Source of the DNA: Pseudomonadota bacterium
Lineage (GTDB): Bacteria > Pseudomonadota > Alphaproteobacteria > Rickettsiales > UBA3002
Assembly: GCA_963205305.1 (NCBI GenBank)
Contig: CAUJIC010000025.1
Span: forward strand, 13,554 to 77,553
Direction of reading: 5' to 3'
DNA: 64,000 nucleotides
The notes beneath the pieces were generated by a model, which was given only the letters and a program-made list of their open reading frames with translations, was not told the DNA's origin and did not search any database. Position 1 is the first letter of the stretch, and every line of letters begins with the position of its first letter. A program made the translations under genes and the position numbers. Shown here one piece after another: positions 45,722-56,038 of the stretch.

Positions 45722-47569
45722 CTAGGTTGTTGCGGGTGCGCCACCCTTAGCACCATCCGATGAAGGTGGTGGCGGTGCAGCGGCCACTTTGGCTTTCTTA
45801 CGAGGGTCATACGGCTCCTGCACGGGCAGGGCGGGTGGTGGCAGCAGACGCTTCTTGAAGAATGGGTCCTTGTAGTAGAAAATCTTTTTGCACTTAATGG
45901 GCGAGAAGGATTCCACAAGGATAATTTGCTCATCGCGCGGCAGCTGAATAACTTCCTGTGGCAGGAGCAGCGCACGCTGGGTTTCCGAGACTTGCATGGT
46001 ACGTGAATGGGGGTTGAAATCCACGAATTTGGGCTTGTTGTGCGATTCCTGAACGGCGGTTTTGTTACCCACCAGTTGCGAGATCATGTTCGCGGTCTCG
46101 ATGTTGTTGGCCGAGAAGGTGATGCGGTAATAGGAGTTGGAGAGGAAGCTGTTCATGCCCGCTTCTTCGTAAATGCCTTTGAGCTGCTGCGTATCCTGAA
46201 CGATGAGGAACAATTTCACGCGGAACCCACGGAAATAGGCGATACCGATTTGGAATTGCGGCATTTCACCCAGTGATGGGAACTCATCGAGCATGAAGAG
46301 TACACCGTGTGGCTCGTCTTTTTTGGGCATATTGCGCGTCATGAAGTCGGTCGCTTGCTGGTAGAATACTTTCAGCAATGGTTCGAGGCGCTGTAAGTTG
46401 TCAGGCGTCACACCGACATACACCGACTGCTTGCGCTTTTTCATCGTCTGCAAATCGAAGTCGGAGCTTGCGGTGGTAGTGTCAATCAGTGGGTTCGCCC
46501 AAAGTTCGAGCGCGGAGTTGAGGGTAGAAACTACGCCCGAGCGTTCCTTATCCGCCTTTTGCAGGAAGGAAGCGATGTTCATGTAGGCAACAGGGTGGAT
46601 TTTCCCGCCAATGGTATCGAGCACCACCGCGAGGTTATAGACCACATCGTCCGAGCGCATGGTGCGTACCACTTCACCAAAGCTGGTAATTTTCTCGGGC
46701 ACCGCGCACAGGTAGAGAATGATGCCGAGCATCAGCGAGCGTGCTTCGTTCTGCCAGAATTCCTGCTCGGGCAGCACAAGGTTACAGATTTTCTGGACGT
46801 CATCGACCATCTGGCCAGGTTTTTCGGAAATCCAATCCAGCGGGTTATAGCAATGCGAAATACCGTTCGGGTCGGCGGGGTTCCAGTAATAGGTTTTTTG
46901 GCCAAGTTTTTGTGAGCGATAGCCGCTGGTCAGCTCGTAGTTCTCGCCCTTGATGTCGTGAATGATAACGGATTCTTCCCAGAATAATAAGTTTGGAATC
47001 ACGAAGCCGACACCCTTACCCGAACCTGTTGGTGCAAAGAGTAATACGTGCTGGAAATCATCCGCAATCAGGTAGTTTGCGGTGCCAGTGCGCCCCATGA
47101 GGAGGCCTTTTTTGGCGCGCAGCTTAGCGCGGCGCAGGTCAGATTCATCCGACCATTTGGCATCACCGTGGATTTTTTCTTTCTCGCGGAAGGGGCGAAA
47201 ATCAATCAGCGGTGCGCGCATGAGAAAGAGGGTGAACAGGCCAAGAAAACCGCCGGCGGCTAGTGGACCATAGAATTTAGCATCGAACGCGGCATTGAAA
47301 TAGGCTTCGCGGTAGCGCGGGTCCTGTTTGTAATACACCGCTTGTTTGTGAATGTCGCCATAGCCCTTCAGGATGCCTTTGGGGTTGGATGCGGACATGG
47401 CATACGTGAGCATGGAAGCAGGAGGCTGGTGATAGATACTGAGGATGTAGCGGTGGCCAAGGGTGAAGCCTGTCGCCATGCCGATATAGGTCGGGATGAG
47501 TAGCGTCGCCAGAATGATGGCAATGAGCAGCAGCTTAGTTAAAAGTTTCTGGACGGGCTCGGGCATCAT
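45722..47569 (-). CDS. virD4: Type IV secretion coupling protein VirD4
   Basis: Two N-terminal TM segments, Walker A FAPTGSGKGVGFVIPN, and the LFMLDEFPSLG Walker B region. Confidence 0.9.
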   Translation of the reverse strand: MMPEPVQKLLTKLLLIAIILATLLIPTYIGMATGFTLGHRYILSIYHQPPASMLTYAMSASNPKGILKGYGDIHKQAVYYKQDPRYREAYFNAAFDAKFYGPLAAGGFLGLFTLFLMRAPLIDFRPFREKEKIHGDAKWSDESDLRRAKLRAKKGLLMGRTGTANYLIADDFQHVLLFAPTGSGKGVGFVIPNLLFWEESVIIHDIKGENYELTSGYRSQKLGQKTYYWNPADPNGISHCYNPLDWISEKPGQMVDDVQKICNLVLPEQEFWQNEARSLMLGIILYLCAVPEKITSFGEVVRTMRSDDVVYNLAVVLDTIGGKIHPVAYMNIASFLQKADKERSGVVSTLNSALELWANPLIDTTTASSDFDLQTMKKRKQSVYVGVTPDNLQRLEPLLKVFYQQATDFMTRNMPKKDEPHGVLFMLDEFPSLGEMPQFQIGIAYFRGFRVKLFLIVQDTQQLKGIYEEAGMNSFLSNSYYRITFSANNIETANMISQLVGNKTAVQESHNKPKFVDFNPHSRTMQVSETQRALLLPQEVIQLPRDEQIILVESFSPIKCKKIFYYKDPFFKKRLLPPPALPVQEPYDPRKKAKVAAAPPPPSSDGAKGGAPATT

Positions 47570-47669
47570 AGGGTGCTAGGCTTTCCACGCGGGTTATGGG
47601 GTGGTTATACACGATGCGGGTTGAGGGTGAAAGTACGAAAAACATGCCTGTGGTTGACATGCATATGCA

Positions 47670-48668
47670 TTAGTGGCCGCCTGGTTTGAAATAGACTTCG
47701 CTTACGTAACGGCGGCCTTTCTCGCCGCGTTTCAGCTGGACGATGACTTGGATGACGTTCTCGACATAGGCTTTGATTTGGTCACGCGTGATGCCAAGAT
47801 CGGCTTGCATAATCATGAGGATAAGTTGTTCGATTGCCAACGCAGGCGCATCGGCATGCACCGTTGCGATGGAACCAGGGTGACCGGTGTTGACAGCGCG
47901 CAGGTAGGAGAATGCCTCGGCGCCGCGTAACTCGCCGACGATGATACGATCGGGGCGCAAACGCAGGCAGGCCTCGATGAGCTCTTGCGTGGTTACTTTC
48001 GCGCGGCCTTGGCCACCCTTACTGACCATAAGGTGAACGCGGTTAGGGATGTGGTCGATTTGCACCTCGCGCGCATCCTCCACCGTAATGATGCGCTCCT
48101 CGGAAGGGATTTCGCCAAGTGCTGCGTTCATGAAGGTGGTCTTACCGGTCGAGGTACCACCGCTGATGATCATGTTTTTCTTGCCTTTGACGGCTTTTGA
48201 AATGAAATTTTTGACATCACCGCGCGCATACAAATCCATCAGTTCGTCATCGAGCGGATCACTGACGGCAGCCACGGTTTTGGTTTGCAGGAAGGCGCCT
48301 TTTTCTTCGTACTCGTTCAGTGTCATCACCACGTTGGCTTGTTTACGTATAGACATGGCGATGCCATTATCGGCGCATGCGGGCGGGAAAACGACTTGGA
48401 TACGATAGCCACCAGGGAGGGTGGCGGAAAGTAGTGGCTTCTCCTCGCTAATGTTTTGGTTCGTGGATTGTGCGATGAGGTGGGAGAGCGATTCAAGATG
48501 GTGATGGGTGAGCAGCGGCAAGCTTTCAAGTCGCATAGTACCGTATTTCTCAATCCATGCCTCGCCGGGGCGATTTATGGAAATCTCCTGAATACCGTCT
48601 TCGGCAAAGAGTGCCGCAAGCGGATCAAGAAATGTATCGAGTGCGGTAAATGACATAAAAGCGTGCAC
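47670..48668 (-). CDS. virB11: Type IV secretion ATPase VirB11
   Basis: Walker A ISGGTSTGKTTF, RPDRIIVGELRG, and the His box NTGHPGSIATVHA. Confidence 0.9.
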   Translation of the reverse strand: MHAFMSFTALDTFLDPLAALFAEDGIQEISINRPGEAWIEKYGTMRLESLPLLTHHHLESLSHLIAQSTNQNISEEKPLLSATLPGGYRIQVVFPPACADNGIAMSIRKQANVVMTLNEYEEKGAFLQTKTVAAVSDPLDDELMDLYARGDVKNFISKAVKGKKNMIISGGTSTGKTTFMNAALGEIPSEERIITVEDAREVQIDHIPNRVHLMVSKGGQGRAKVTTQELIEACLRLRPDRIIVGELRGAEAFSYLRAVNTGHPGSIATVHADAPALAIEQLILMIMQADLGITRDQIKAYVENVIQVIVQLKRGEKGRRYVSEVYFKPGGH

Positions 48669-48694
48669 CTAAAGTCGAAGTAAGGGTTGGTGTG

Positions 48695-55576: not shown

Positions 55577-55670
55577 ACAAACTCGTTAGTCATCGAATGA
55601 TGGAATGACACACTCCAGAATGAGCCACGCGGGGGCTCGGGGGAATATAAGGGACTTTAGTTAAGTAGTA

Positions 55671-55700
55671 GTGGGCGCCACCGTTTAAGGTGACGCCCAC
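55671..55700 (-). terminator. Strong stem-loop just after virB2 (intra-operon attenuator or RNA-stability element)
   Basis: The minus strand reads GTGGGCGTCACC-ttaaac-GGTGGCGCCCAC, 18 nt downstream of the virB2 stop. The following U-tract is weak. Confidence 0.5.
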
Positions 55701-55717
55701 ATTTAAGCCTTAGCTCG

Positions 55718-56038
55718 TTAGCACGCAGCGCCACCGAGCATCGTAACGATGTCAGCTGCACCGAAGATGATACCAACACCTAAACCAACGATGATGGCCA
55801 TACCCCACGATACTTTACCCATGAGGGCGCCAACGCCGATAACAATAATTGCCAGGGTGGCAATACCGCTACCGATTGGACCTTGGAACCAATCAACTAC
55901 TGTACAAAGCGTATCCCCGAGTGGGTTGGCAGCCAAAGCTTCAGTTGGCAGCAACATCACTGCGTAAGCCACAAACAGGGCCATAGCGAGATGCGTCAGT
56001 TTCTCAGTCGTTAAGGTTAGTTTCATAATAGTCTCCAT
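55718..56038 (-). CDS. virB2: VirB2/TrbC-family T-pilin subunit
   Basis: Long signal peptide ending ...PTEALA/ANP, followed by two hydrophobic helices and a short C-terminus. It is the first gene of the virB cluster. Confidence 0.7.
   Translation of the reverse strand: METIMKLTLTTEKLTHLAMALFVAYAVMLLPTEALAANPLGDTLCTVVDWFQGPIGSGIATLAIIVIGVGALMGKVSWGMAIIVGLGVGIIFGAADIVTMLGGAAC

Follow-up and report, generated by a model that had tools for sequence, protein, structure and literature searches.

We analyzed a 64,000-nucleotide stretch of contig CAUJIC010000025.1 (assembly GCA_963205305.1), referred to here as the window, with a focus on a type IV secretion system (T4SS) locus at positions 45722 to 56038. 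The locus consisted of eight co-oriented minus-strand genes, namely, virB2, virB4, virB6, virB8, virB9, virB10, virB11, and virD4, with housekeeping genes around it. A previous reading made from the letters alone (the sequence-only reading) had proposed these eight assignments, and all of them held at the same coordinates in our Pfam scans. Specifically, the eight open reading frames (ORFs) matched the expected families, with E values of 1e-13 to 1e-47 for VirB2, VirB4, VirB6, VirB8, VirB9, and VirB10 and an E value of 1.6e-145 for VirD4. The genes were as follows.

55718-56038, minus strand: virB2, pilin of 106 aa (102 aa from the second Met); PF04956 (TrbC/VirB2), E = 6e-20
53216-55576, minus strand: virB4, 786 aa; PF03135
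51555-53219, minus strand: virB6 (TrbL family), 554 aa; PF04610
50712-51422, minus strand: virB8, 236 aa, a single transmembrane segment near the N terminus (residues 31-49); PF04335, E = 2.9e-44
49936-50712, minus strand: virB9, 258 aa, complete, both domains present; PF03524, profile positions 1-198 of 198
48695-49936, minus strand: virB10, 413 aa, with a transmembrane segment at residues 47-65; PF03743, E = 4.2e-47
47670-48668, minus strand: virB11 ATPase, 332 aa, Walker A motif intact (GTSTGKTT); PF00437
45722-47569, minus strand: virD4 coupling protein, 615 aa; PF02534, E = 1.6e-145

The signal peptide of VirB2 ended in ...EALA, with ANP as the next residues. The ORFs overlapped by 4 nt at the virB4/virB6 junction and by 1 nt at the virB8/virB9 and virB9/virB10 junctions, in agreement with the overlaps of 1-4 nt read previously, and the gap between virB11 and virD4 was 100 bp. 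The G+C (GC) content of the locus was 50-55%, like that of the remainder of the window, which also agreed with the sequence-only reading. A VirB4-family ATPase, VirB6, VirB8, VirB9, VirB10, and a VirB2-type pilin were all present, and this is the component set of a P-type (MPF_T, VirB/D4) system. ComB-type DNA-uptake systems lack both VirB11 and VirD4; here, the two proteins were present and were encoded by the most conserved genes of the locus.

The locus showed signs of purifying selection, with nonsynonymous-to-synonymous substitution ratios (dN/dS) of 0.07-0.15 for the genes with an estimable dS; for three genes dS was saturated, which permits upper-bound reasoning on the ratio at most. 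The best conserved component was VirD4 (71-92% identity across the clade; dN/dS = 0.07), and VirB11 identities were 64-84%. Both proteins passed NCBIfam equivalog models, VirD4 with 942 bits against NF010472 (PRK13897; cut-off, 728) and VirB11 with 524 bits against NF010475 (PRK13900; cut-off, 389), and VirB9 scored 206.5 bits against TIGR02781 (cut-off, 217.7). The PRK1389x models probably derive from Rickettsia; indirect support comes from model PRK13898, which was passed only by VirB4 proteins from the separate VirB3-VirB4-VirB6 islets described below. Judging by the equivalog scores, VirD4 and VirB11 appear to be orthologous to the rvh T4SS proteins of Rickettsia.

Hundreds of homologues of the window VirB4 were found in metagenome-assembled genomes (MAGs) labelled "Rickettsiales bacterium" or "Alphaproteobacteria bacterium." A relative with 68% VirB4 identity, located on a 2.35-Mb circular MAG contig (CBDFGU01), had an identical layout, flanks included: two DUF2336 genes, CoA-transferase, EVE, TraX, a 73-aa gene, and YjgF, followed by virB2, virB4, virB6, virB8, virB9, virB10, virB11, and virD4, and then by histidine phosphatase and ppk. 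A scan of GTDB species representatives yielded 38 related loci (loci of relatives are given L numbers below), and a tblastn map showed the same gene order in nearly all of the 38, with mostly the same flanks, down to 35% VirB4 identity. The eight-gene order with the same flanks was present in more than 40 environmental alphaproteobacterial MAGs, further subclades included, and virB2 preceded virB4 in almost every related locus.

Two of the genomes that carried the compact locus were UBA6189 (L018) and UBA6178 (L038), and the window VirB4 was 55% and 44% identical to their VirB4 proteins, respectively. Both genomes belong to Candidatus Mitibacteraceae, the deepest Rickettsiales family, whose members have 42-58% GC, genomes of about 2.2 Mb, and the kind of gene repertoire that free-living bacteria have (Schön et al. 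2022, PMC9352585). The same study described the rvh-type P-type T4SS of the Mitibacteraceae and its synteny and inferred a virB4 duplication in the Rickettsiales ancestor. Our placement of the window in the Rickettsiales was based on the synteny of locus and flanks with UBA6189 and UBA6178 and on the NCBI label "Rickettsiales bacterium" of many relatives. Because locus and flanks were shared with the published Mitibacteraceae, the window represents a further member of the published system. A Micavibrio-like predator, suggested by GC content and genome size, was considered as the host and rejected, as the M. aeruginosavorus genome paper describes the absence of a T4SS and the genome scan contained no Micavibrio record. 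The flanks in the window were as follows.

45164-45682, plus strand: histidine phosphatase, downstream flank
42894-45116, minus strand: ppk, downstream flank
41397-42890, minus strand: ppx (Ppx/GppA family), downstream flank
56471-57949, plus strand: divergent upstream flank with a YjgF/RidA-like gene, a gene for a 75-aa soluble protein (56943-57170), and a gene for a TraX-family membrane protein (PF14588, PF05857)

The phosphatase gene and ppk were also found downstream in relatives whose contigs extended so far, and the upstream flank genes preceded virB2 in most relatives as well. In addition to ppk and ppx, the housekeeping genes identified via Pfam in the window included thiG, aroQ, gshA, and genes for ribonucleotide reductase and CoA-transferase; one low-GC island with an integrase was also present.

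This setting bore directly on the idea that the locus serves mating-pair formation, either for an integrated conjugative element or for an old plasmid insertion, and that a relaxase and oriT lie just beyond the window. VirB/D4 sets with VirD4 are typical of conjugation, the matched Pfam families bear the names of conjugation proteins, a gene of the TraX family is located 1.1 kb upstream, and an integrase island occurs elsewhere in the window (26286-27410). However, no relaxase was found among about 55 ORFs scanned across the 64 kb, the housekeeping flanks were the same in dozens of species with VirB4 identities of 35-80%, and the GC content of the locus was that of its surroundings. Moreover, the closest VirB4 among 72,556 plasmids was only 31% identical, and the integrase island was 18 kb off, low in GC, and carried an RTX gene instead of transfer genes. 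The occurrence of the same housekeeping flanks across diverged species indicated vertical inheritance at a fixed site, and we consider a conjugative module highly unlikely. The sequence-only reading had argued for an effector-type rather than a conjugative system, and the chromosomal, non-conjugative part of that argument was supported by the missing relaxase, by flanks conserved in more than 40 species, and by plasmid VirB4 identities of 31% or less.

Next to virB2 and virB8, the sequence-only reading had described two gaps, 55577-55717 and 51423-51554, that lacked a plausible ORF where virB3 and virB7 would lie. This description proved accurate, as neither gap contained a coding-strand ORF of more than 36 aa and none of the ORFs was conserved. 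In the 38 related loci, the virB2-virB4 gap was 77-217 bp, except in two fragmentary or frame-broken loci, and the virB6-virB8 gap was 94-225 bp, except in two loci; a re-examination for small ORFs found neither a conserved small ORF nor a lipobox ORF in either gap. The following features were found in the gaps of the window.

55671-55700, minus strand: GC-rich hairpin with a 12-bp stem, directly 3' of the virB2 stop codon (-29.2 kcal/mol; z = -4.25 versus shuffled sequences)
51464-51491, minus strand: sigma-70-like promoter TTGCAA-16-TATAGT in the virB6-virB8 gap, identified via a consensus scan

A hairpin with a different sequence, usually with a T-run behind it, was located at the equivalent place after virB2 in about 25 relatives; in the window's own hairpin, the T-run was weak. 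The hairpin is probably a terminator or attenuator that would uncouple expression of the pilin from that of the machinery. In the case of the virB6-virB8 gap, the TTGCAA and TATAGT hexamers lined up across more than 20 related genomes with hardly any variation, and the rest of the gap diverged. The two seemingly empty gaps are thus likely to hold conserved regulatory elements, not lost genes. In view of these conserved non-coding features, the locus is best read as separate transcription units, namely, virB2, virB4-virB6, and virB8 onward. Two further elements were observed near the promoter. A short conserved inverted repeat, CCCACTA...N...GTGG (51430-51460, minus strand), lies 3' of TATAGT, is common to many relatives, and is a possible regulator site in the presumed virB8 5' leader. 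An upstream ATAACTTATCC-CCA box, common to closer relatives, is another possible regulator site.

The remaining VirB components were sought in the window and in the related loci. Pfam scans of about 55 larger window ORFs and the locus detected no relaxase, no SLT-type VirB1, and no VirB5/TrbJ, and the reported absence of virB1 and virB5 was thereby corroborated. For VirB3, we used two hidden Markov models (HMMs), one built from 3 plasmid sequences in which VirB3 lies between VirB2 and VirB4 and one built from 22 rvh-type sequences from metagenome loci. Neither HMM had a match in any frame of the 64-kb window (best E value, >2) or in the window together with about 40 related compact loci (best E value, >0.6). 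Of the 80 control loci among the matches listed, 43 had a VirB3 immediately 5' of VirB4 that the first HMM detected. The 75-aa ORF at 56943-57170 was considered as a hidden VirB3 and rejected because its product is soluble and has no transmembrane segment. The window VirB4 contained no hydrophobic or transmembrane segment and hence no VirB3 fusion, as had been stated from the sequence.

For VirB7, the lipoprotein with a stabilizing role for VirB9, no candidate was found in the window, and no lipobox ORF was found in the virB6-virB8 gap of the 38 loci, although VirB7 proteins are so short and variable that this negative is not a firm one. Among the small window ORFs, only one, 11350-11757 (plus strand), had a convincing lipobox (signal ...LVLVTASC). 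This lipoprotein-like ORF lies 40 kb from the T4SS and showed neither a Pfam match nor a PxNK motif.

The published gene counts for Mitibacteraceae genomes suggested where the missing components are located. Supplementary Data 4 of Schön et al. 2022 (PMC9352585) gives the following counts for five genomes.

bin125: VirB3, 1; VirB4, 2; VirB9, 2; VirB6, 2; VirB1, 1; VirB5, 0
TOBG-RS372: VirB3, 1; VirB4, 2; VirB9, 2; VirB6, 2; VirB1, 0; VirB5, 0
UBA6149: VirB3, 1; VirB4, 2; VirB9, 2; VirB6, 2; VirB1, 1; VirB5, 0
UBA6178: VirB3, 2; VirB4, 3; VirB9, 2; VirB6, 8; VirB1, 1; VirB5, 0
UBA6189: VirB3, 1; VirB4, 2; VirB9, 2; VirB6, 1; VirB1, 0; VirB5, 0

Thus, all five genomes encode VirB3, at least two VirB4 proteins, and two VirB9 proteins, four of the five encode at least two VirB6 proteins, three encode VirB1, and none encodes VirB5 (PMC9352585). 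Duplicated RvhB4, RvhB8, and RvhB9, multicopy RvhB6, and the lack of VirB5 are hallmarks of rvh systems (Lehman et al. 2024, PMC11077975). The compact loci of UBA6189 and UBA6178 have no VirB3, yet the table lists VirB3 for both genomes; therefore, VirB3 and the additional VirB4 must be encoded outside the compact locus in these two genomes.

A metagenome scan with canonical VirB4 proteins repeatedly revealed a second type of islet, VirB3-VirB4-VirB6-VirB6(-VirB6), in related contigs of 37-56% GC, among the matches listed. For example, MAG JANRJW01 (L130) carried VirB3 (PF05101), VirB4, and three VirB6 genes among ordinary chromosomal genes; this MAG and the relative L041 came from the same study series but from different assemblies. 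The VirB4 proteins of two VirB3-linked islets passed PRK13898 with 1357 and 1232 bits (cut-off, 1050). Three canonical VirB4 representatives (P0183, P0185, and P0226) were considered as VirB3-linked and rejected, as one lies in a colinear locus without VirB3, two are stand-alone, and VirB3 adjoins none of them. In a separate observation, the region directly upstream of virB2 in one relative (L027, 345-6867) contained three genes, which encode a VirB8-like protein of 243 aa, a further VirB9 of 264 aa, and a secreted repeat protein of 1638 aa; the VirB8-like and VirB9 pair resembles rvhB8-II and rvhB9 of Rickettsia.

These data allowed us to weigh the proposal that the eight genes suffice as a self-sufficient minimal T4SS that works without VirB3, VirB7, VirB1, and VirB5 and draws all of its energy from VirB11 and VirD4. 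Consistent with this proposal, neither VirB3 nor VirB7 was found within the locus or close to it across more than 40 genomes, the eight-gene set was conserved as a unit under purifying selection, and a search for VirB6 paralogues in complete relatives found one orthologue per genome, at the sensitivity of that homologue search. In addition, the extra periplasmic domains of VirB6 could substitute for VirB5. On the other side, VirB3 and a second VirB4 are published for every Mitibacteraceae genome, two of which have this very locus, and VirB3-VirB4-VirB6 islets with several VirB6 copies are common in related environmental MAGs. Furthermore, the VirB4 of the locus lacks the catalytic lysine, as described below, which makes a machine with this VirB4 alone less plausible. 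We therefore regard a self-sufficient eight-gene machine as unlikely. The sequence-only reading had offered two explanations for the missing genes. The first, that they are encoded elsewhere, as in scattered rvh systems, was favored by the published table and the separate islets in related contigs. The second, that the machine works without them, became improbable for VirB3, given VirB3 and a second VirB4 in all five published genomes, and was left standing for VirB7.

An unusual feature of the locus concerned VirB4. Residues 30-755 of the protein aligned to TrwK of R388 (725 residues), and the alignment placed the following motif opposite the Walker A motif of TrwK (GQSSSGKT).

54176-54199, minus strand: degenerate Walker A of VirB4, GNPGSGRT (residues 460-467), in which Arg replaces the catalytic Lys

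The Walker B motif was LEDGF, versus FDEFW in TrwK, and the downstream "TQ" motif was TA. The protein scored below the NCBIfam cut-offs of TIGR00929 (462 versus 643 bits) and PRK13898 (399 versus 1050 bits), and its sequence was 100% identical in two independent Logan assemblies. Within the window's subclade, which includes UBA6189, the Walker A Lys position was occupied by R, A, V, H, or S. A more distant syntenic subclade that includes UBA6178 had intact motifs (GSGK[ST]/LDEAW), and in a third family, of 791 proteins, the P-loop was replaced by "LD[FY]NSF.D." We considered this GC-rich third family as a second paralogue and rejected the idea because its members sit in the same syntenic eight-gene locus and are therefore positional orthologues. 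Compared with the 80% identical relative L021, the window VirB4 had a dN of 0.137 with saturated dS, which pointed to purifying selection.

In a neighbor-joining tree, VirB4 proteins of compact loci grouped with stand-alone, long-branch, fast-evolving VirB4 proteins, apart from a short-branch VirB3-linked clade; the distances were saturated, no bootstrap values were shown, and almost no representative carried a name that would label it as RvhB4-I or RvhB4-II. The RvhB4-II protein of Rickettsia lacks conserved ATPase active sites and is nevertheless conserved and expressed (PMC4676284). We hold with moderate confidence that the VirB4 of the locus is of the RvhB4-II type and that the catalytic RvhB4-I travels with VirB3. 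Given the loss of the Walker A Lys and the grouping with RvhB4-II-like proteins, the VirB4 of the locus is probably a non-hydrolyzing structural scaffold. In the running text of the rvh literature, figures aside, we found no description of Walker A loss in a VirB4 of the colinear locus.

A degenerate VirB4, together with the lack of VirB3, VirB5, and VirB7, would also be expected if the locus were a decaying or repurposed remnant that makes a surface pilus or adhesin at most or is in the course of being lost. In favor of this reading, the window VirB4 no longer has its Walker A lysine, the position varies freely in the subclade, and one relative (L039) showed many frame breaks. However, all eight ORFs were intact in the window and in nearly all relatives, dN/dS was 0.07-0.15 where it could be estimated, and the secretion-specific ATPases VirD4 and VirB11 were the best conserved parts. 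The L039 sequence came from a long-read assembly, and its frame breaks therefore look like assembly errors. Degenerate VirB4 paralogues are also conserved and expressed in the functional rvh system of Rickettsia (PMC4676284). For these reasons, decay or repurposing seems quite unlikely to us.

The VirB6 protein had been described as enlarged and as carrying a C-terminal extension. As modeled with AlphaFold2 on an alignment of 44 orthologues (mean predicted local distance difference test score, 76), the protein has a helical VirB6 core, an N-terminal segment rich in Cys, an insertion (about residues 303-405) that is rich in beta structure and contains invariant cysteines, and a helical, hydrophilic C-terminal tail. 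In a Foldseek search, the top PDB matches of the model were TrwI/VirB6 chains of the R388 stalk (probability, 1.0; target TM-score, about 0.5), and a profile of the VirB6 family matched TrwI weakly (E = 0.012). Relative to TrwI, the N-terminal segment added about 65 residues, the insertion (303-405) about 105, and the tail about 100. Thus, the protein does exceed TrwI and the Agrobacterium VirB6 and does have a hydrophilic tail, but an N-terminal part and an insertion contribute to its size as well. Orthologues in the clade were 520-587 aa, close to TrbL-size proteins, so a length of about 550 aa is normal for the clade and the 554 aa of the window protein do not represent a special enlargement. 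It is a matter of speculation that the extra periplasmic parts of VirB6 replace VirB5 at the stalk tip.

Taken together, the results make it quite probable that the locus is the main colinear islet of an rvh P-type T4SS that is chromosomal and vertically inherited in a deep, Mitibacteraceae-like branch of the Rickettsiales of the free-living type, with the missing parts encoded elsewhere in the genome. Because an rvh T4SS has already been described for basal Rickettsiales, the locus is a further example of a known machine and not a stripped-down new one; the suggestion of an unusual compact machine that works without VirB3, and its presentation as new, were not supported. In the proposed working, the islet would supply the VirB2 pilin, one VirB6 stalk/channel subunit, the inner-membrane and core proteins VirB8, VirB9, and VirB10, and the ATPases VirB11 and VirD4, and its VirB4 would act as a structural, non-hydrolyzing subunit after loss of the Walker A lysine. 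Transcription would occur in at least three units, that is, virB2, ended by the strong hairpin, virB4-virB6, and virB8-virB9-virB10(-virB11), transcribed from the sigma-70-type promoter. A second chromosomal islet would be expected to encode VirB3, a catalytically intact VirB4 of the RvhB4-I type, and further VirB6 copies. A second VirB9 and, as in most published genomes, a VirB1-like gene would be located elsewhere, and VirB5 would be absent, as in all rvh systems. Protein effectors selected by VirD4 would be translocated into neighboring cells, with no DNA transfer. For these lineages, it has been proposed in print that the system kills bacterial competitors or acts against protists (PMC9352585).

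Several observations weigh against this interpretation. The second islet and the compact locus were not found together in one genome, nor was the second islet found in the window's genome, and the co-occurrence of the two comes from the published presence/absence table. VirB7 may be truly absent. In the case of VirB4, the saturated distances in the tree make the RvhB4-II assignment provisional, distant syntenic loci keep an intact Walker A motif, so the positional orthologue is sometimes non-degenerate, and a Walker A motif with Arg in place of Lys can still bind nucleotide. Finally, the poor T-run lends little support to rho-independent termination after virB2 in the window.

The rvh T4SS of basal, apparently free-living Rickettsiales has already been used to argue that secretion systems were repurposed at the origin of host association. 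What our analysis adds is that an eight-gene colinear islet with fixed flanks forms the conserved core in a very large environmental clade, that the gaps hold conserved regulatory elements, and that the VirB4 of the islet is of a degenerate type. A bolder idea, which we put forward tentatively and with the balance somewhat against it, is that the VirB4 of an ancestral colinear operon repeatedly lost its P-loop, that RvhB4-II is the original operon copy, and that the VirB3-VirB4-I-VirB6 islet with its multiple VirB6 genes was a later addition that took over energizing. In a more extreme version, some genomes of the clade may run the machine without any intact VirB4 or VirB3. If the idea is true, the clade offers a natural series from intact to degenerate forms for asking what a non-hydrolyzing VirB4 does in a T4SS. 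If the degenerate VirB4 in the islet holds up, it would help to explain the origin of the duplicated Rickettsia architecture and would supply intermediate forms. A degenerate VirB4 within the ancestral colinear operon is the sole point here that might interest specialists.

Other features of the window and of related loci were also noted. The TraX-family membrane protein (PF05857, the F-pilin acetylase family) is encoded at 57170-57949 (plus strand), 1.1 kb upstream of virB2, and the gene was kept near virB2 in many relatives (L003, L008, L021, L038, L043, and others); the VirB2 pilin may be a target for modification by this protein. Two DUF2336 paralogues in tandem (381 and 382 aa; 61150-63424) occupied the same position relative to the T4SS in the distant loci L003, L043, and L131. 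Variants of the locus in relatives included a 1757-aa VirB6 (L131, 12417-17690), three tandem virB2 genes (L042, 8694-9705), and a VirD4 of 1400 aa whose C terminus is greatly extended (L044, 18169-22371). The low-GC island of the window (21400-27700; 43-48% GC versus about 53%) contained a gene for a tyrosine integrase (26286-27410) by tRNA-Thr (27614-27688), a small regulator-like ORF, and a gene for an 872-aa RTX calcium-binding repeat protein (21726-24344), and it resembles an integrated element with a substrate of type I secretion as its cargo.

The sequence-only reading had also pointed to four orphan ORFs with basic tails (32725-33261, 11785-12315, 19995-21149, and 59558-60154). None had a Pfam match or a homologue in the related loci that were fetched, and a role as T4SS substrates is pure speculation. 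The last of these, a 198-aa ORF on the plus strand, lies between two CoA-transferase subunit genes, and a minus-strand ORF is present at 59105-59497. At this position, L003 encodes two secreted low-complexity proteins (252 and 134 aa) on the opposite strand; neither matched the window via tblastn, and either window ORF may be the real one at this position.

We then compared the locus with known systems. The Agrobacterium VirB/VirD4 and R388 Trw systems (PDB 7O3J-7O43 and 8RT9-8RTD) share with it the order of virB2, virB4, virB6, and virB8-virB11, with virD4 last, and the alignment of VirB4 with TrwK over 725 residues and the superposition of the VirB6 model on TrwI extend the likeness to R388. 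In contrast to these systems, the window locus has no virB1, virB3, virB5, or virB7, no relaxase, and no Dtr module, its VirB4 is about 30% identical with an altered P-loop, and its VirB6 is 200 residues longer. In plasmid systems, VirB3 lies between VirB2 and VirB4, whereas in the window locus a hairpin fills that space.

The Xanthomonas X-T4SS (Souza et al. 2015; Sgro et al. 2019) is likewise a chromosomal VirB/D4 system, and its delivery of toxins to rival bacteria is a role proposed in the literature for basal Rickettsiales. It reportedly has a full VirB1-VirB11 set, an enlarged VirB7, and effectors with XVIPCD domains. The window, unlike this system, has no full VirB1-VirB11 set and no VirB7 candidate. 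No effector/immunity pairs of the X-T4SS type were identified among the window ORFs, and no search aimed at XVIPCD domains was made.

With the classical rvh systems of Rickettsia, Wolbachia, and Anaplasma (Gillespie et al. 2009, 2010, 2015; PMC4676284), the window shares the lack of VirB5, a large VirB6, and VirD4 and VirB11 proteins that pass the same NCBIfam equivalog models, and the classical systems have VirB4 paralogues that include one without ATPase active sites. The gene order in R. typhi is rvhB8-I, rvhB9-II, rvhB10, rvhB11, rvhD4, and gppA (PMC4676284). Similarly, virB8-virB9-virB10-virB11-virD4 is followed in the window by ppk-ppx (41397-45116), so that a Ppx/GppA-family gene comes after the T4SS genes in both; this arrangement is possibly a relic of shared neighborhood ancestry. 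In Rickettsia, however, the genes are spread over about five islets with rvhB4-II alone, whereas virB2, virB4, and virB6 are joined to the virB8-virD4 block in the window. The rvhB7 gene lies directly upstream of rvhB8-I, and the window has a promoter-bearing gap of 132 bp at that place. The hosts differ as well, as Rickettsia species are reduced intracellular parasites and the window comes from a mid-GC genome with biosynthetic genes.

The closest likeness was to the rvh systems of the Mitibacteraceae and Athabascaceae (PMC9352585, PMC11077975). The window's genome is not among the published MAGs, and because the window holds single copies of virB4, virB6, virB8, and virB9, the duplication hallmarks of rvh systems are invisible in it. 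The same locus, gene order, and flanks are nevertheless found in UBA6189 and UBA6178, the systems are alike in being P-type and chromosomal and in having no VirB5, and the published genomes, with 52-58% GC and about 2.2 Mb, are in line with what the window and its complete relatives show.

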